Shown here: one piece after another, positions 40,645-60,028 of the stretch
How positions within the stretch are numbered: position 1 is the first letter of the stretch
Layout: every line of letters starts with the position of its first letter
NCBI GenBank assembly: GCA_001567275.1
Contig: LNBX01000040.1
Coordinates: 7,169-71,168, forward strand
Direction of reading: 5' to 3'
DNA length: 64,000 nucleotides
Source of the DNA: Bacteroidetes bacterium OLB10
Lineage (GTDB): Bacteria > Bacteroidota > Bacteroidia > AKYH767-A > OLB10
Made by a program: the position numbers and the translations under genes
The notes under the pieces: generated by a model
Databases searched by the model: none
What the model saw: only the letters and a program-made list of their open reading frames with translations
Told to the model about the DNA's origin: nothing

Positions 40645-41595
40645 TTACTTCCTTCGGTTACGAAATGCTTCAATAACCTTGCTCATTCCTTTTTCGAGAG
40701 GAGTGAGGTCACGGTTGAGCAGAATTTTCATTTTTGAAATATCAGGGCATCTGCGCGTCATATCACCTTCTTTGAGTGCAGGCAGATGCACAATGTTTGA
40801 TTTTGAATTTAGAATTTTCTTAACCATTTGAGCCAACTCAAGAATGGATGTTTCTTTATCGTTACCGATATTGATGACGTCATTCACAAAACGATGGGTG
40901 TAAAATGCATTGAGACATGCTTCAACATTATCATCTACATAACAAAAAGTTCGTGTCTGTGAGCCATCACCATAAATGGTAATATCCTGATCTAACAGTG
41001 CCGAATCAATAAATTTCGACATCACAAAGTCGGTGCTTTGTTTTGGTCCATACGTGTTGAAGAAACGGAAAATGGTAAAGTCAAGACCAAATTCCTGCTT
41101 GTAGGCACGCAGGTATGCTTCTCCCAGATTTTTTACGATGGCATAAGGCAATCGTGAGTTGAGCGGAGTAGTAGTTTCGTTTTGCGGATATTCAACAGGC
41201 TCGCCATAAACCTCGCTGCTGCTGCTGAAATATACGCGCTTCACGCCTGTATTTTTTGAAAGGTCGAGTACGTTTTTCAATCCTGTAAGATCGTTCAATA
41301 CCCATGACGGATGATCGAGTGTACGTTTTACACCTACTACCGCTGCATAATGAAATACATAGTCGAAAGCATAAGCATAAAAAATTGCAGAAATATCTCT
41401 GAAATCGTTTACATCGGCTTTTATAAATTTAACGTTGTTATGTTTGGAAGGCGGAACCTTGCTTAGCGATCCTGTCAGCAGGTTATCAACTACCACTACA
41501 AAATTGTCGGCATTATCGGCTAATTTTTCTGCCAGTGCACTGCCCACAAATCCTGCACCTCCTGTTACTAATATTTTGCTTTTACTGTTTGTCAT
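40645..41595 (-). CDS. NAD-dependent epimerase/dehydratase (UDP-glucuronate decarboxylase/UXS-like)
   Basis: Rossmann motif ILVTGGAGFVGSAL. Catalytic YxxxK region. 316 aa. Confidence 0.8.
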   Translation of the reverse strand: MTNSKSKILVTGGAGFVGSALAEKLADNADNFVVVVDNLLTGSLSKVPPSKHNNVKFIKADVNDFRDISAIFYAYAFDYVFHYAAVVGVKRTLDHPSWVLNDLTGLKNVLDLSKNTGVKRVYFSSSSEVYGEPVEYPQNETTTPLNSRLPYAIVKNLGEAYLRAYKQEFGLDFTIFRFFNTYGPKQSTDFVMSKFIDSALLDQDITIYGDGSQTRTFCYVDDNVEACLNAFYTHRFVNDVINIGNDKETSILELAQMVKKILNSKSNIVHLPALKEGDMTRRCPDISKMKILLNRDLTPLEKGMSKVIEAFRNRRK

Positions 41596-41600
41596 ATAAC

Positions 41601-42473
41601 TTATAAATGTTGATCTAATATTTTAATCAGATATTGTCCGTATCCGCTTTTCATCAGTGGCTCTGCAACTTTGCGGAGTTGTTCTTTATTGATAAAACCC
41701 ATACGGTAAGCCACTTCTTCAATGCAGCCTACTTTTAATCCCTGACGTTCTTCAATTACGTTTACAAAATTTCCTGCCTGCAACAGTGAGTTGAATGTAC
41801 CGGTGTCGAGCCATGCAGTTCCTCTTTCCAAAAGTTGCACTTTCAGTTTTCCTTCTTTGAGGTAATGTTTGTTGATGTCGGTAATTTCGTATTCGCCACG
41901 TGCGCTGGGTTTTAAATTTTTGGCAATAGATACCACATCATTGTCATAAAAATATAATCCCGGAACAGCATAGTTGGATTTGGGTTTCTGCGGTTTTTCT
42001 TCAATAGACAATGCATTAAAATCTGCATCAAACTCTACTACACCATAACGCTCAGGATCCGAAACGTGATAAGCAAATACCAGTCCGCCCTGCATGTTGT
42101 TGTTTCCTGCAAGAATCCGACCCAGCCCTTGTCCATAAAAAATATTATCGCCCAGTACCAGGGCAACAGAATCATTGCCGATAAATTTTTCGCCAATTAC
42201 AAATGCCTGTGCCAGTCCGTTAGGCACCTGTTGCTCTTCGTAATGAAAACGGCAGCCTAACTGCTCGCCCGTGCCCAGCAAACGTTTGAAGTGCGGCAAA
42301 TCATGAGGTGTGCTGATGATTAGTATTTCGCTGATGCCTGCCATCATCAACACCGATAACGGATAATATATCATCGGTTTATCATAAACGGGCATCAATT
42401 GCTTACTCATTGCCAGTGTAAGCGGATGTAATCGTGTGCCGCTGCCTCCGGCTAAAACAATTCCTTTCATCAA
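41601..42473 (-). CDS. rfbA: Glucose-1-phosphate thymidylyltransferase
   Basis: [19 protein letters not shown]-terminus. 290 aa. Confidence 0.9.
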
Positions 42474-42744
42474 TTAAATTCAGAAGTCAGGTTGTACGTA
42501 AAAATATCAATTGTGGTTTCTGAAAGCATAAAAATTACTTTCGGCTGTAAAAGTACTAATGTTCACTGATATCCGTATCTGCCTGATACCTAAAAATTAA
42601 CCGGAATATTTGCTATACAGAATTATTAAGTGATTATTGCGAGAGATAAACAAATCAACAGCATATAAAATTCTTCCTGCTTAAAAACAACCGTATAAAC
42701 AATCACCTTCAACTACTTGTTACCTTTGCAAAAAATATTTTTAG

Positions 42745-43776
42745 GTGAACCGTAATATCAGCGACCTTTCAAACCTGATGAGTAAACTCACAGTGCGTAA
42801 GGCAGCCAATTTTTCGAAAGTGATCAGCAGCTATTATCTGTCGCGACTGACAGGTAAGGCACAGCATAATGGTATGCCAGTAAGTATTTCGGTTGAGCCT
42901 ACTACCTCCTGTAACCTGCGCTGCCCTGAGTGTCCGAGCGGGCTGAGAGCTTTCAGCCGCCCAACAGGAATGCTGCAACCCGAATTTTATAAACGACTGA
43001 TTGATGAACTTGCTCCTGATTTATTGTATCTGATACTTTATTTTCAGGGCGAGCCTTATCTGAACACCAATCTCTTTGACATGATTCGTTATGCACATGA
43101 GCATAAAATTTATACGGCAACATCTACCAATGCTCATTACCTGAGTGACGACAATGCCCGCAAAACTGTAGAAGCAGGACTCGACAGACTGATTATTTCT
43201 ATTGACGGCACTACGCAGGATGTGTACTCGCAATATCGCAAAGGTGGCTCACTTGAAAAAGTATTGCAGGGAGCTGAAACAATGGTGAAATGGAAAAAAC
43301 AACTTCAGTCAAAAACACCGCATCTCATTTTTCAGTTTCTGGTAGTGAAACCCAATGAACATCAGGTGGAGGATGTAAAAAAACTTGCAGCCAAGATTGG
43401 AGTGAACGAAGTGGCGTTTAAGACAGCTCAGCTTTATGATTATAAAAACGGTAATCCGCTGATGCCTGACAATTCCAGGTACTCACGTTATAAGAAGAAC
43501 AAAGACGGCACTTACAGCATAAAAAATCCATTGGAAAATCATTGCTGGAAAATGTGGCATTCATCCGTTATAACATGGGACGGAAGTATGGTGCCCTGTT
43601 GTTTCGACAAAGATGCAAGGCATAAGTTAGGCGATTTGCAGCACGATAGTTTCCGCAAGTTATGGCATGGCAAAACATATAATCGTTTCAGGCAGGCTGT
43701 TCTTACTTCGCGCAGCAGTATAGATATTTGTGCCAACTGCACCGAAGGTGGCCGCGTGTGGACAAAAGGCAGATAG
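42745..43776 (+). CDS. Radical SAM enzyme with C-terminal SPASM/twitch-like Cys-rich domain; substrate unknown
   Basis: CxxxCxxC cluster SCNLRCPEC. Gly-rich SAM region …ISIDG…. C-terminal …W.DG.MVPCCFD…ICANCTEGG. Confidence 0.8.
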   Translation: MNRNISDLSNLMSKLTVRKAANFSKVISSYYLSRLTGKAQHNGMPVSISVEPTTSCNLRCPECPSGLRAFSRPTGMLQPEFYKRLIDELAPDLLYLILYFQGEPYLNTNLFDMIRYAHEHKIYTATSTNAHYLSDDNARKTVEAGLDRLIISIDGTTQDVYSQYRKGGSLEKVLQGAETMVKWKKQLQSKTPHLIFQFLVVKPNEHQVEDVKKLAAKIGVNEVAFKTAQLYDYKNGNPLMPDNSRYSRYKKNKDGTYSIKNPLENHCWKMWHSSVITWDGSMVPCCFDKDARHKLGDLQHDSFRKLWHGKTYNRFRQAVLTSRSSIDICANCTEGGRVWTKGR

Positions 43777-43866
43777 ACTTTGCAAGTTGTCTATTAAGAA
43801 GTTTACTTCTTAGGTTTAATATGTAAAAAATTTTTCGCACAAGCGTGGCCATATAGTGTTATCGCT

Positions 43867-43915
43867 CGCGCTCACCCCCTGCCCCTGAAGGGGTGACTGC
43901 GCGCTTTGCTTTTTG
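43867..43915 (+). terminator. GC-rich extended hairpin + T-run; likely terminator of the radical SAM gene. Contains copy 1 of a 24-nt repeat.
   Basis: cgcgcTcacccc-ctgcccctgaa-ggggtgACTgcgcg followed by ctttgcttttt. Seen directly. Confidence 0.5.
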
Positions 43916-44163
43916 ATATTCGACTCCTATGAAGTTGGTGAAATGGTTTTGTTGTGTATGGTATTAATATGTAATCTCTACGGGATTTGGAATAATATTA
44001 TTGACTTAGGGCAAGAGGTCAGTTTTTACAGGGTTGTTTCTATTAATTCTTTTTTATGTTCTTTTGTCTTAACACAATCCCGCAGTTCAGCGGGACCAAA
44101 AAGTCAAGGCTGTATAAAAACATCCTAAAAATTCAAACCGATTCTGCTGCGCAATCGAATGTC

Positions 44164-44193
44164 GCAACGTTTCGTAATGCTACGAAACGTTGC
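44164..44193. other. Perfect 13-bp inverted repeat gcaacgtttcgta-atgc-tacgaaacgttgc (protein-binding site or RNA stem-loop candidate)
   Basis: Seen directly. Not flanked by a U-run on either strand. Confidence 0.35.
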
Positions 44194-44329
44194 TCGGGAT
44201 TGCTTACACATGCTCCCGCTACGAATCGCTTTGTATTTTCCAGGCGGATGTTTTTATAAGGCCGATTATTGATTTTCGTATCTAAAAGTTTATATCAAAA
44301 TATTGAGTTAATATTTTTTTGCCTTTGCG

Positions 44330-44353
44330 CACCCCTGCCCCTGAAGGGGTGAC
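44330..44353 (+). repeat. Copy 2 of the 24-nt GC-rich hairpin repeat cacccctgcccctgaaggggtgac
   Basis: Direct-orientation duplicate of 43874-43898 with a one-base difference in a C-run. Contains the cccc-tgaa-gggg mini-hairpin. Confidence 0.45.
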
Positions 44354-44557
44354 AACACACATCGTATTTGAAGCGCGTCTGCGCCCTTTAGGGCTATGGG
44401 TGAGCGGTGCAAAGTAGTGTTCTTTTTGTTGTGTTGTAAATTTTTTCAGTGTCATTGTCTTGTCCTGAGCGGTTTTAACAGCACATTTCTGCACCTGCTT
44501 CAAAATTTATTTATCTTATTTTTAAATCGAAAAAAATTCTATTTTTGCGCCCTCGTT

Positions 44558-44628
44558 TGTCCGATGGTGTAATGGTAACACTGCAGATTTTGGTTCTGCC
44601 TTTCCAGGTTCGAATCCTGGTCGGACAA
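44558..44628 (+). tRNA. tRNA-Gln (anticodon UUG)
   Basis: Manual cloverleaf fold. Acceptor tgtccga/tcggaca with U1:A72. D-arm gtgt/acac. Anticodon stem gcaga/tctgc with loop ttTTGgt. T-arm ccagg-ttcgaat-cctgg. No encoded CCA. Confidence 0.8.
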
Positions 44629-44681
44629 CAAAGAATGGGCTGTTTCAACTTTTGAGCAGCCTTTTTTGTTTACTTCGCTGT

Positions 44682-46037
44682 ATGAAAACCACCGCCATAA
44701 CGCGTATTTTCATTGTGGAGGACGATGACTGGTACCGCGAGTTTTTGCAATATATCCTCTCATTGAACCCCGACCACGAGGTGTCAGCTTTTGCTTCGGG
44801 CAGAGAGATGCTGGAAAATATGCACCGCCAGCCGCATATCATCACGGTTGACTATCACCTTCCCGACATAAACGGCAGCGAGTTGCTTACCAGAATCAAG
44901 GAGCAGCAACCCGATTCAGATTGTATTGTCATTTCAGAACAACACAGCATTGATACCGTTGTGGAACTGCTCAAAAACGGTGCTTATGATTATTTTGTAA
45001 AATCAAAGGATATCAGAGACAAGTTGCTCAATACAATTGAAAAAATAAAAGAGCAGCAACAACTCAAAACAAAAATCTGGGAGCTGGAGCGTGAAGTGGA
45101 ACAGAAATATGATTTTCAGAAACGCCTCATTGGTGCACATCCATCATTCCAGAAAATATTTCCATTGCTGCAAAAAGCCATTTCGTCCAATATTACTGTG
45201 ATGATAAGTGGCGAAACCGGAACTGGTAAAGAAGAAATTGCCAAAGCCATTCACTATCATTCGAGGCAGAAGAAAGGAGCTTTTGTTGCTGTGAACATGT
45301 CGGCCATACCCAAAGAATTAGCCGAAAGCGAATTGTTTGGCCATGAGAAAGGTGCCTTTACCGGTGCTATACAGTCACGCACAGGAAAGTTTGAAGAAGC
45401 CAATGACGGCACATTGTTTTTAGACGAAATTGCCGATATGGACATTGCCCTTCAGGCAAAGCTGCTTCGTGTGTTGCAGGAACGCGAAGTGGTGAGGGTG
45501 GGTTCCAACAAACCCATTAAAATAAACTGCAGAATTATTGCTGCCACTCACCGCAATCTGGCTGCCGAAGTAAAACAAAACCGTTTTCGCGAAGACCTTT
45601 TCTTCCGTTTGTATGGTTTGCAGATACATTTGCCACCGTTGCGCGAGAGAGGTACTGACTGTATTCTGCTATCGCAGTATTTTATCCGACAGTTTTGTAA
45701 AGAGAATCAGCTGCCGACAAAAAAACTTTCGTCAGAGGCACAGAGTAAACTGATGGCTTATGCTTTTCCGGGAAATGTTCGCGAACTGAAATCGGTAATA
45801 GAACTGGCTGTAGTGATGGCAGATACAGAAACCATTCAGGCAGATAATCTCATTTTTTCTGAAAGTAATTTTGAAACGGAACTCCTGTCGCAGGAACTCA
45901 CACTCGAATTGTATGAGAAGAAAATTATTCTGCATGTGCTGGGCTTGTGCAACGGCAACGTGCAGCAGGCTGCCGACAGACTGAACATTGGCAAAAGCAC
46001 CATCTATCGTTTGCTGAACAGGGAAAAAGAAGGGTAA
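44682..46037 (+). CDS. Sigma-54-dependent response regulator (NtrC family: REC + AAA+ sigma54 activator + Fis-type HTH)
   Basis: REC domain. Walker A GETGTGKE. GAFTGA motif. Arg-finger region. C-terminal HTH …GNVQQAADRLNIGKSTIYRLL. Confidence 0.9.
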   Translation: MKTTAITRIFIVEDDDWYREFLQYILSLNPDHEVSAFASGREMLENMHRQPHIITVDYHLPDINGSELLTRIKEQQPDSDCIVISEQHSIDTVVELLKNGAYDYFVKSKDIRDKLLNTIEKIKEQQQLKTKIWELEREVEQKYDFQKRLIGAHPSFQKIFPLLQKAISSNITVMISGETGTGKEEIAKAIHYHSRQKKGAFVAVNMSAIPKELAESELFGHEKGAFTGAIQSRTGKFEEANDGTLFLDEIADMDIALQAKLLRVLQEREVVRVGSNKPIKINCRIIAATHRNLAAEVKQNRFREDLFFRLYGLQIHLPPLRERGTDCILLSQYFIRQFCKENQLPTKKLSSEAQSKLMAYAFPGNVRELKSVIELAVVMADTETIQADNLIFSESNFETELLSQELTLELYEKKIILHVLGLCNGNVQQAADRLNIGKSTIYRLLNREKEG

Positions 46038-48318: not shown

Positions 48319-49683
48319 TTATAGTTTTAAAAATTTCAGATTGATAATTTCCGATTCTGAAATTACAGCCAGGTGATAAACTCCATTGCTAAGTCCTGTA
48401 AGTTGCAGCTGATAACGAGTGTTGTCTGTATGTATTTTTCTGATGGTTTTTCCGGTAATATCTGAAAGAATCATTTCAACATTGCCAACAGGATGGTTGC
48501 TCACGAGAGTTATCACATCAGTTGCAGGATTAGGATAAATCTGCCAGCCGGAAGCTGACAGTGCACTCACACTGCTGATGATAACACTGTGACAGGAAGA
48601 AGTATCGCTACAGCCATTGGCACCAATTACAACTGCGTAAGTGCCATTAGCGGTGGGTGTAAAACTCTGACTGATGGCTCCCGGTACCGGAGTGTTGTTC
48701 AGGCAGTTTATCCACTGATAAGTTGCTCCGTTTTGATTAGCAGTCAGTGTATTTTGGTTTTGTGTAACTGAGGTATCATTCTGTGTAAGAATTATTTTTA
48801 TGGTTGAATCGCAGTTTACTGAAGAAGTATAGGTGAAGGTATAGGTGCCCGGCTGACTTATAAGCTGACCGTTGTAAGGATAGGATTGCCCTACACATAG
48901 ATATGCAGTAATCACGGTGCTGTTGTCAATTCCGTCAACGAAATTGGAGCTAGTACCTGTCAGATTAAATCCGGACAGAACTCCATTGACGTTGAGTTTT
49001 TTATCCGGAACAACTCCAATGCCTGTGTTGTTTCCTCCGGCTACACCGGTATTCATGTCGTAATACATCTGCAATCCGTTTGAATTGATGTCAATTTTGT
49101 TTTTATACAAACACATCACTTCTTCCGCAGTGAGACTTCTGTTCCAAAGCCCTACTTCGTCCACCTTGCCATCAAGGTAGTAGTTGGTTCCCTGATACAA
49201 CAGATTACCTACCAAAAACGACTGAGTTGAAGTGTTGATGGTGCCTGATGCAGGAACTGAGTCGGTAATTACACCATTACGATACACACGCAGATAAGAG
49301 CCATCATACGTCATGGCATAATGTTGCCAGGTGTTTAACTGCATTCCATTCGAAATAATATTGTACTGAATACCTGAACTATTGGTAAACCGTGCCTCTA
49401 TGGATGAAGAGGTGTATTGCAACAAATAAAAATCGGCAAACAGATTATCACGGAATCCTATTATTCCATCAAAATCAGGAAATGTTGGTGCGGGATTTCG
49501 GGGATACACCCAGCAGGCAATACTCATCTGCGGTGAACCTGTGATTAAGGATGAAGCGTTAAATGCCTCCACCTGATCATCAATGCCATCAAAATCAAGA
49601 GCATTTTCAGTTTGTGCCTGTGCAATTACAGACAGTAGTATAGCAACAAGAGTTACCATTGAATAACGTATAAACTGTTTCAT
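48319..49683 (-). CDS. Secreted LamG/concanavalin-like domain protein with T9SS C-terminal sorting domain
   Basis: Signal peptide MKQFIRYSMVTLVAILLSVIAQAQ. Jelly-roll/LamG-like region (…FDGIDDQVE…SIACWVYP…). C-terminal …WQIYPNPATDVITL…ILSDITGKTI…GVYHLAV… is a T9SS CTD. Confidence 0.65.
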   Translation of the reverse strand: MKQFIRYSMVTLVAILLSVIAQAQTENALDFDGIDDQVEAFNASSLITGSPQMSIACWVYPRNPAPTFPDFDGIIGFRDNLFADFYLLQYTSSSIEARFTNSSGIQYNIISNGMQLNTWQHYAMTYDGSYLRVYRNGVITDSVPASGTINTSTQSFLVGNLLYQGTNYYLDGKVDEVGLWNRSLTAEEVMCLYKNKIDINSNGLQMYYDMNTGVAGGNNTGIGVVPDKKLNVNGVLSGFNLTGTSSNFVDGIDNSTVITAYLCVGQSYPYNGQLISQPGTYTFTYTSSVNCDSTIKIILTQNDTSVTQNQNTLTANQNGATYQWINCLNNTPVPGAISQSFTPTANGTYAVVIGANGCSDTSSCHSVIISSVSALSASGWQIYPNPATDVITLVSNHPVGNVEMILSDITGKTIRKIHTDNTRYQLQLTGLSNGVYHLAVISESEIINLKFLKL

Positions 49684-49856
49684 GATTTTTAAATTTAAAA
49701 CGTAAAGGTAATGATTCTGAAAAGACATGTATGAAATTCTTCAACATTAACCCTTCACTCAGTTTGTCATCAGATGAATATTGAAGTAACTTATTGAAGG
49801 AGTGTTCGTACTATGTTTTGTTTTTACTAATATTGTGTAATTATAACTAAAGAATC

Positions 49857-58729: not shown

Positions 58730-60028
58730 TTAACCTTCGAATTCTATCTCAGTATTCAGTTTTTGAGCAAGCAGCTTAAGCAAGTCAGCTTTAAGTGCAT
58801 CATTATTGATTTTTTCAATAACGTCACCTGCAAAAGCATAATTCAGCAAAGCGAGTGCATCTTTTTTGCCAATACCTCTTGAACGGAAATAGAAAAGTGC
58901 TTCTTCGTCCAGTTGGCCTGTGGTAGCACCGTGCGAACATTTTACATCATCGGCATAAATCTCCAGCTGAGGTTTTGCATTCATGACAGCCACATCGCTT
59001 AACAAAACATTTTTGCTGCTCTGAAATGCATTGGTTTTTTGTGCATCCTGACGAACAAATATTTTACCGTTGAAAATACCATGAGCATTGTCGTCAAGAA
59101 TGTTTTTATACAACTGAAAACTTTCGCAATGCGGGCTTGCATGATCCACCAGAGTGTGATTGTCAACAGTCTGATTTTTTCCTCCTACAGTAAGACCGTT
59201 CAGGTGAGCAGTGCCACCGGTTTCAGTGAGTGCAATATTCAGATTATTTCTGACCATTTTGCCTCCGATGGTTACAGTGGAAATATCGAAAACAGAATCA
59301 CGTTTCTGTTGTGCATACACATAATTTATCTGAAGTGCTTTTTCATTTTCATCCTGTTTTACATCATACTCTACAAAAGCATTTTCACCCACAAAAAATT
59401 CAGTTACGGAATTGGTAAGCGAAGTGAAATTATTCAGCGAATGGTAGGTTGCTATCAGCTGAACTTTGGAATTTTTTTCGGCAACAACCAGATTGCGGGG
59501 GTGCGCAGCTACGGCTTCTTGTCTTGAATCGTTGAAGTGCAGCAGGTGAATAGTTTGTTTAACCTCTTGTCCTGCTTTGATATGTATGAGCAAACCTCCG
59601 TGATGGAATGCGGTGTTGAGTGCAATAAACGGCTCATCGGTTTTGGCAAGTTTTCCAAACCAGTGCGCAGCAAGTTCTGATTCTACTGATTCAATGCTGA
59701 AGGTGTTATCCCGCTGTTGAGAAGATAATTCAGGACAATAAACACCATTGATAAAAACCAATGTGATGGCATCGGCACCTGCAACTTTATATTTTTCAAT
59801 ATCAGACAAAGTTAATTTGGTGCAGGCCGGGGCCTGATGGTTAAATGGTGTATTTTTCAGAACTGACAAATCAAGATATTTCCACTCTTCGTCTTTCAAT
59901 GACGGAAATCCTGACTTGTTGAAGGTATCAATGGCAAGTTTTCTTTCGGGAGTAAGTTTTTCCGAAGCTATATTTTCAAACGATATTTGTTGTTCTGTTT
60001 CTGAAATGGTTTCTGTAAGCGTATTCAC
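58730..60028 (-). CDS. sufD: Fe-S cluster assembly protein SufD
   Basis: 432 aa. Beta-helix SufB/D family member immediately downstream of sufC. Confidence 0.85.
   Translation of the reverse strand: MNTLTETISETEQQISFENIASEKLTPERKLAIDTFNKSGFPSLKDEEWKYLDLSVLKNTPFNHQAPACTKLTLSDIEKYKVAGADAITLVFINGVYCPELSSQQRDNTFSIESVESELAAHWFGKLAKTDEPFIALNTAFHHGGLLIHIKAGQEVKQTIHLLHFNDSRQEAVAAHPRNLVVAEKNSKVQLIATYHSLNNFTSLTNSVTEFFVGENAFVEYDVKQDENEKALQINYVYAQQKRDSVFDISTVTIGGKMVRNNLNIALTETGGTAHLNGLTVGGKNQTVDNHTLVDHASPHCESFQLYKNILDDNAHGIFNGKIFVRQDAQKTNAFQSSKNVLLSDVAVMNAKPQLEIYADDVKCSHGATTGQLDEEALFYFRSRGIGKKDALALLNYAFAGDVIEKINNDALKADLLKLLAQKLNTEIEFEG

Follow-up and report, generated by a model that had tools for sequence, protein, structure and literature searches.

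A widespread stand-alone radical SAM protein family of the Bacteroidota with a probable BtrN-like twitch domain

SPASM and twitch enzymes in the radical S-adenosylmethionine (SAM) superfamily number about 165,000 and are mostly uncharacterised; the twitch domain is a shortened form of SPASM that binds one auxiliary cluster (PMC9012708). In BtrN, which catalyzes a two-electron oxidation, this cluster has four cysteine ligands, and in MoaA it has three, which leaves an open site for GTP (PMC9012708). We analyzed a 64,000 nucleotide stretch of contig LNBX01000040.1 from Bacteroidetes bacterium OLB10, referred to here as the window, in which a gene at 42745-43776 encodes a 343 amino acid radical SAM protein. 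The protein is very probably of the twitch type and BtrN-like, and we lean towards reading it as a stand-alone, constitutively expressed enzyme with a single auxiliary cluster and a housekeeping substrate that is made or encoded elsewhere. It adds one more member to a family whose sequences are already known and carry generic annotations, and whose function is uncharacterised.

Domain architecture and nearest described relatives

The gene and the parts of it that define the protein are as follows.

42745-43776, plus strand: gene for the radical SAM/twitch-domain enzyme, 343 amino acids, GTG start
42910-42933, plus strand: codons of the CX3CX2C motif (C56-N-L-R-C60-P-E-C63) of the SAM-binding [4Fe-4S] cluster, without variation among 32 close homologues
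43543-43743, plus strand: predicted C-terminal twitch (truncated SPASM) domain, residues 267-333, from the Pfam SPASM match, the BtrN profile alignment and the conserved cysteines

The GTG start is credible because the N-terminus that it gives, MNRNISDLSN, agrees with the consensus of the family, MNxNxxDxxN, where conservation reaches 90% or more at N4, D7 and N10. Both Pfam domains passed their cut-offs, Radical_SAM (PF04055) over residues 50-181 (59.2 bits, cut-off 29.5) and SPASM over residues 267-333 (61.5 bits, cut-off 21.5), and the CNLRCPEC motif stands at residues 56-63. This agrees with the original prediction, made from the sequence without database searches, of a radical SAM enzyme with a cysteine-rich, SPASM- or twitch-like C-terminal domain. 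The CX3CX2C motif, the PF04055 score above threshold and a partial TIM-barrel fold place the protein in the radical SAM superfamily, and an AlphaFold2 model gives it an N-terminal extension of ~45 residues made up of two helices.

The Pfam SPASM model is expected to pass even for a truncated domain. Canonical SPASM domains carry a seven-cysteine motif, CX9-15GX4C ... CX2CX5CX3C ... C, and two auxiliary clusters. In an alignment of 113 divergent representatives that are 32-57% identical to the query, exactly eight cysteines were conserved at 98-100%: C56, C60, C63, C267, C285, C286, C329 and C332. The three of the CX3CX2C motif were conserved at 98-99% and the five C-terminal ones at 99-100%, the latter in the pattern C-x17-CC-x42-C-x2-C with no further conserved cysteine. 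The C-terminal spacing in the query is C267-x12-G280-x4-C285(C286) ... C329-x2-C332, and the protein stops at residue 343, 11 residues after C332, without more cysteines. The CX5CX3C ... C half of the canonical motif is absent. What is present is a truncated SPASM domain with the cysteines for a single auxiliary cluster, which the profile alignment puts in register with those of the BtrN twitch domain. Because of this one auxiliary-cluster cysteine set and the BtrN alignment, we class the protein with high confidence as a twitch-type enzyme rather than a two-cluster SPASM enzyme.

The nearest solved structure is that of BtrN (2-deoxy-scyllo-inosamine (DOIA) dehydrogenase of the butirosin pathway; PDB 4M7T/4M7S), which was found with E = 1.6e-13 from the single sequence and E = 1.6e-17 from a profile of 32 homologues. 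The likeness extends over the C-terminal domain as well as the radical SAM core. In the C-terminal domain, family profile positions 273-334 align to BtrN residues 175-237 (4m7s_A), '...VVPCCFDKD...' pairs with '...VLPCFEDFN...' and 'DICKNCTE' pairs with 'DLCKNCNN'. The cysteine after 'VxPC' and the final CxxC therefore align, and both proteins have a single auxiliary-cluster cysteine set. The C267-C285 spacing would also equal that of BtrN if the first BtrN ligand is C169, as we assume. The differences are considerable. Identity is ~22%, and the query family is ~90 residues longer, with the extra N-terminal helical extension of ~45 residues, an insert at ~227-266 and the invariant extra C286. 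Furthermore, BtrN belongs to a secondary-metabolite cluster, whereas the query family is a housekeeping-type, phylum-wide gene. An orthologue of BtrN (a DOIA dehydrogenase) was rejected on the ~22% identity and because aminoglycoside genes were found neither in the window nor in the 94 homologous loci described below.

Searches of NCBIfam, Pfam and PADLOC placed the protein at the superfamily level only, and no equivalog or subfamily cut-off in NCBIfam was reached. The top-scoring curated families, themselves biochemically uncharacterised, were TIGR04317 (W_rSAM_matur, tungsten cofactor oxidoreductase radical SAM maturase; E 4.8e-35, 121.3 bits with the cut-off at 380, query residues 48-332 aligned to positions 6-313 of the 349 in the profile) and TIGR04311 (rSAM_Geo_metal, putative metalloenzyme maturase; 104 bits against a cut-off of 400). 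These matches raise the alternative that the protein matures a protein or metallocofactor encoded elsewhere, on the model of the anaerobic sulfatase-maturating enzyme anSME acting on distant sulfatases, or of the tungsten cofactor oxidoreductase maturase. The nearly full-length TIGR04317 alignment fits this explanation, the family profile also matched the C-terminal domain of the anSME structures 4k36 and 4k37 weakly (~31 bits), and a stand-alone gene without a local partner fits a target encoded in trans. We nevertheless consider it unlikely, since the scores are far under the cut-offs (about one third for TIGR04317, whose profile leaves the N-terminal 47 query residues unmatched), the seven-cysteine SPASM domain of anSME is absent and no candidate target emerged.

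The second half of the seven-cysteine motif of the canonical SPASM enzymes anSME, PqqE, SuiB and CteB is missing in the query, with only CX2C left, and the query differs from them as well in having no PqqD match in Pfam and no nearby gene for a peptide or protein substrate. MoaA (GTP 3',8-cyclase, a twitch enzyme) has three cysteine ligands, whereas the query family conserves four to five C-terminal cysteines. Several assignments were rejected: anSME was not among the 25 best NCBIfam matches, in addition to the absent seven-cysteine motif, and the scores against equivalog cut-offs were 53.7 bits versus 284 for MoaA, 74.4 versus 500 for AhbD, 65.4 versus 650 for NirJ1, 61.3 versus 381 for PqqE and 58.1 versus 265 for MftC. 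PADLOC, which gives no cut-off, returned weak core-domain matches to prokaryotic viperin and defence radical SAM models (38-42 bits), with no kinase or defence context.

The original prediction held that the substrate could not be assigned, and in this it was right. It had set against its own reading the case of a clean fall into a characterised family together with an unconserved neighbourhood. The protein fell cleanly into no such family, and the neighbourhood proved to be unconserved, as described below.

Family conservation and gene neighbourhood

The family comprises more than 8000 clusters at 90% identity. The best 120 clusters are 64-99% identical to the query and ~340 amino acids long, and members among the listed matches come from Chitinophaga, Runella, Telluribacter, Chondrinema, Chitinophagales and 'Bacteroidia'. 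An exhaustive HMMER search among representatives at 50% identity yielded 1526 clusters (E < 1e-30), of which many are full-length relatives with 35-45% identity. Scanning genomes gave at least 597 species-level matches, including Spirosoma, Dyadobacter, Niastella, Hymenobacter, Pontibacter, Flectobacillus, Fulvivirga, Roseivirga, Sediminibacterium, Lacibacter, Saprospiraceae and some metagenome-assembled genomes of Flavobacteriales and Sphingobacteriales. More distant relatives were found in Crocinitomicaceae, Marinilabiliales, Salinivirgaceae, Bacteroidales, Ignavibacteriales and Planctomycetota.

Identity among Bacteroidota orders is 62-76%. About 38 positions are near-invariant across the 113 representatives; besides the cysteines these include N22, E51, QGE101-103, STN127-129, SxDG152-155, Y161, Y164 and R165, and in the later part of the protein Q197, N204, K226, R248, Y249, D288, K289 and R316. 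The combination of cross-order identity and near-invariant positions points to a precisely defined substrate that would be common to all carrier organisms. Source annotations are all generic ('radical SAM protein with SPASM domain'), a literature search returned no paper on the query family, and a 2026 review on lipid-modifying radical SAM enzymes has no Bacteroidota entry. No informative Rosetta-stone fusion was found: the extra length of longer homologues came from extensions that were mis-called or of low complexity, or from the module being duplicated in tandem. The duplication is found in the Planctomycetota proteins P0210 and P0325 (locus L088, 620-2677), which have 674-685 amino acids and two tandem radical SAM plus twitch modules, the only fusion seen in the family.

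The gene appears to be an independently transcribed unit with its own promoter. In the divergent intergenic region (42474-42744, no strand, between rfbA on the minus strand and the radical SAM gene on the plus strand), a Bacteroidota-type -7 box, TACCTTTG, lies at 42721-42728 and ends 16 nt before the GTG. The Bacteroidota -7 promoter consensus is TAnnTTTG. Across 90 homologous loci the only k-mers enriched upstream were variants of this element: TAnnTTTG was present within 45 nt upstream of the start codon in 30 of 90 loci compared to 3 of 1170 coding windows, and the relaxed TAnnTTT in 57 of 90 compared to 44 of 1170. The box ended at a median of 8-9 nt ahead of the start codon, a distance so short that most loci have little room for a leader element. 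Since the -7 box is just upstream, the gene would stand as a unit of its own whose leader is very short. In the window, Rfam gave no match in the region upstream of the gene or in the spacer downstream of it, and so offers upstream no riboswitch that would name a pathway. A sigma-54 promoter upstream was rejected because no GG was seen at -24 when the region was read by eye.

The genes that flank the radical SAM gene in the window are the following, the first two being listed for context.

40645-41595, minus strand: SDR-family NAD-dependent epimerase/dehydratase (Pfam Epimerase, 187 bits; no NCBIfam equivalog)
41601-42473, minus strand: rfbA, glucose-1-phosphate thymidylyltransferase (TIGR01207, 476.9 bits against a cut-off of 360.65)
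44652-46037, plus strand: sigma-54-dependent response regulator of the NtrC type (Pfam Response_reg, Sigma54_activat and HTH_8)

The radical SAM gene is thus divergent from rfbA and an epimerase-type gene and is followed by a hairpin-dense non-coding region, the layout described by the original prediction. That prediction called the two minus-strand genes a dTDP/UDP-sugar pair of rfbA and a UXS-like epimerase; the RfbA assignment stands, and the second gene is a generic SDR protein without an equivalog. Neighbours were then compared in 94 loci (flanks of 7-10 kb in most), including 12 contig look-ups and 80 genome loci, by all-against-all clustering of open reading frames (ORFs; 85 loci, later 94), phmmer and hidden Markov model searches, and naming by Pfam. 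No neighbour was conserved family-wide, and each recurrent one was confined to one lineage, which bears out the description of a stand-alone gene with no visible partner.

Two readings had been offered for such a gene, and the first was that of an enzyme that modifies a sugar or nucleotide sugar in concert with the neighbouring rfbA and SDR epimerase/dehydratase. The divergent arrangement in the window would be in keeping with it, and BtrN (cyclitol), BlsE (nucleoside sugar acid) and DesII (dTDP-sugar) are among the closest sequence or fold relatives. Against it, rfbA is adjacent in 2 of 94 loci (the window and L069) and within 10 kb in 7, and an SDR epimerase gene is present in 3 and adjacent in none. 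At this position the two nearest relatives (76% identity) carry neither gene. Upstream of their radical SAM gene lies a pseudouridine synthase gene, and downstream come tRNA-Gln and the sigma-54 regulator, in that order. Because of this arrangement in the nearest relatives, the rfbA/epimerase juxtaposition is best seen as a local accident, and the sugar-gene neighbours are coincidental here. The family is also much more conserved and uniformly present than any O-antigen-type gene set, and we regard a role in the adjacent sugar pathway as disfavoured and highly improbable.

The neighbours that do recur follow lineage boundaries. The sigma-54 response regulator is present in 8 of 94 loci, all in the window's own clade, and is the same downstream neighbour in L089, L091 and L092. 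A Chitinophagaceae synteny block accounts for GH25, MarR and AI-2E permease genes in 15 of 94 loci each, the permease eroding with distance, and for GHL10 in 14. Its order is a divergent GH25 muramidase, the radical SAM gene, MarR, and then GHL10 or the permease (L010, L019, L028, L046, L055, L061, L082 and others). An independent case of the AI-2E permease lies directly upstream of a homologue with 40% identity (L093). In a Cytophagales-like block, a divergent Lnb gene (lipoprotein N-acyltransferase-like) and an inositol monophosphatase gene, each found in 7 of 94 loci, enclose the radical SAM gene (L007, L027, L054, L057, L078 and L111). An OmpA-family gene, present in 6 loci, is directly upstream in Marinilabiliales and one other lineage.

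The second reading was that of a maturase for a ribosomally synthesized, post-translationally modified peptide (RiPP) with a short precursor gene missed by annotation. RiPP maturation is the role of many enzymes in the SPASM family (PMC9012708), and short ORFs do occur in both flanks. We screened ORFs of 15-100 amino acids within 700 nt on either side of the gene in 93 loci by blastp-short clustering, and no conserved small-ORF family was found beside the radical SAM gene. The largest clusters, of 11 and 7 loci, were shadow ORFs inside the neighbouring GH25 gene of Chitinophagaceae, and another was the translated tRNA-Gln. In the window, none of the short ORFs in the two flanks was a precursor-like ORF of at least 20 amino acids, and the rescan of the flanks that had been suggested yielded no short ORF that tracks the gene. 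The query has no Pfam match to a PqqD/RiPP recognition element leader-binding domain or any other N-terminal domain, its N-terminal extension being just ~45 residues and two helices, and neighbour clustering in 85 and then 94 loci found no co-clustered peptidase or transporter. No curated RiPP maturase cut-off was reached, and cross-order identity of 62-76% is atypical of RiPP tailoring enzymes. Given the missing PqqD match in Pfam, single auxiliary cysteine set, missing peptidase or transporter, housekeeping-level conservation and absence of a small ORF, this disfavoured reading is very unlikely indeed.

Two short ORFs were noted during the screen. One of 52 amino acids (MIQLILIGIVFLGAAFYLGRLVYRSFQAKHECSTGCGKCG...) lies downstream of the radical SAM gene on the opposite strand in four loci (L007, L026, L027 and L057); judged by eye it may be a FeoB-associated cysteine-rich membrane peptide, and with four loci it is not considered a partner. 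The other is a called gene of 46 amino acids that overlaps the stop codon of the Ignavibacteriales homologue (L110, 7996-8136). The translated sequence consists of repeats ('RSEESQ...HSERTKRSEESHFF'), and that of the antisense frame is similar. The call therefore probably marks a palindromic repeat rather than a gene, and it adds nothing to the case for a RiPP precursor.

The gene order of the nearest relatives, between a pseudouridine synthase and tRNA-Gln, raises a further alternative, a radical SAM enzyme that modifies a conserved RNA or DNA. The invariant basic and aromatic residues R165, K226, R248, Y249, K289 and R316 could suit such a substrate, as could the housekeeping-like conservation and the gene's own promoter. 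Against this, Pfam detected no RNA-binding domain (TRAM, PUA, THUMP and similar), the RluA/tRNA synteny is confined to one small lineage, and the known RNA-modifying radical SAM families are not among the NCBIfam matches. We judge a nucleic-acid-modifying function improbable.

Candidate chemistry and substrate

The reading that we somewhat favour thus remains that of a stand-alone BtrN-like twitch enzyme with a housekeeping substrate supplied from elsewhere in the genome. The specific chemistry proposed for it is tentative and argued by analogy. The cluster held by C56, C60 and C63 would cleave SAM reductively to a 5'-deoxyadenosyl radical, which would abstract a hydrogen atom from the substrate. 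C267, C285, C329 and C332 would hold one fully cysteine-ligated auxiliary [4Fe-4S] cluster, as in BtrN, and this cluster would most likely take the second electron for a net two-electron oxidation. The invariant C286 and D288-K289 would lie at the edge of the active site, perhaps as a hydrogen-atom or proton relay. The substrate would be either a conserved macromolecule or a small metabolite or cofactor of polar or anionic character, and would be neither made by the neighbouring dTDP-sugar genes nor a peptide encoded at the locus. A polar or anionic substrate is suggested by the large number of invariant Arg, Lys, Tyr, Gln and Asn residues; candidates are a metabolite that is nucleotide-like, phosphorylated or carboxylated, a nucleic acid and a protein.

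Several points weigh against this picture. Twitch enzymes such as MoaA also do non-oxidative chemistry. The fifth conserved cysteine, C286, makes the ligand set ambiguous, and the predicted local distance difference test (pLDDT) score of the AlphaFold2 model falls below 50 at the cluster-binding loops (residues 54-74, 265-270 and 331-343). The variable neighbours also lean towards the cell envelope (GH25, GHL10, AI-2E permease, OmpA, Lnb, Wzi and rfbA), which could hint at a specific role; this is weak evidence because envelope genes are abundant in these genomes.

We also consider it possible, at somewhat less than even odds, that the enzyme carries out an undescribed housekeeping reaction common to Bacteroidota, Ignavibacteriales and Planctomycetota, with the CC pair and the N-terminal helices marking a new twitch subclass. 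Examples would be an oxidative step for a cofactor, for an envelope lipid or glycan, or in nucleic-acid modification, and the function would have escaped assignment because gene context is strictly lacking. An unusually large, well conserved and context-free family suggests a core cellular role that is invisible to genome-neighbourhood methods. Knowing what it does would give an annotation to thousands of genomes and could bring a new reaction into the chemistry of twitch enzymes, which makes the family a reasonable target for functional discovery. The window itself holds nothing surprising, an ordinary conserved protein without assigned function, and its gene should be annotated neither as a member of a dTDP-sugar pathway nor as part of a RiPP cluster.

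The downstream spacer and minor observations

Two features lie between the radical SAM gene and the response regulator.

43777-44557, no strand: hairpin-rich, non-coding, apparently lineage-specific spacer of 781 nt, from folding and repeats
44558-44629, plus strand: tRNA-Gln (anticodon TTG), which ends the spacer and is followed by a terminator-like hairpin at 44637-44662

The spacer is as hairpin-dense as had been predicted. Four segments fold at z-scores of -2.5 to -3.1, and the exact 22-mer CCCCTGCCCCTGAAGGGGTGAC occurs twice (43876-43897 and 44332-44353), with an expectation of 0. A modular palindromic repeat of ~138 nt has this 22-mer at its core, and its copies in the window are at 43855-43915 and 44325-44460. 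Fifteen metagenome contigs contain the ~138-nt repeat, and its units, ~85 or 137-139 nt apart, often form tandem arrays of 2-5. Its sites include L107 (285-700), L102 (2550-2656 and 5859-6104), L096 and L106; the 22-mer is present in none of the 94 other loci searched for it. The spacer also holds an 18-nt inverted repeat, GGCTGTATAAAAACATCC and GGATGTTTTTATAAGGCC (44108-44125 and 44246-44263), which encloses ~120 nt including a perfect 13-bp hairpin at 44164-44193. A third, weaker copy of the 18-nt arm lies at 59098-59115, and the unit may be a small miniature inverted-repeat transposable element (MITE).

In the two nearest relatives the distance from the stop codon to tRNA-Gln is ~90-190 nt, compared to 781 nt in the window. 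Because the spacer is absent from these relatives and is built of a dispersed repeat, it is probably a lineage-specific insertion made of elements resembling MITEs, or repetitive extragenic palindromic sequences and bacterial interspersed mosaic elements (REP/BIME), and not a functional companion of the enzyme. The tRNA-Gln(TTG), the upstream 'TATTTTTGCGCCC' and the downstream hairpin (window 44540-44662) are nearly identical in L089 and L091, despite radical SAM proteins that are only 76% identical to the query.

Two further observations concern genes at a distance. In Chitinophaga-type loci, a DegT-type aminotransferase, a CMP-sugar-type cytidylyltransferase and an Fe-dependent alcohol dehydrogenase form a trio 3-6 kb from the radical SAM gene (L001 1986-5032, Chitinophaga vietnamensis; L010 14165-15382), which may resemble the KdnA/KdsB/KdnB set for 8-amino-Kdo. 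In the window, the C-terminus of a 469 amino acid secreted protein (48319-49728, minus strand) may be a type IX secretion sorting domain, which would fit a Bacteroidota origin.

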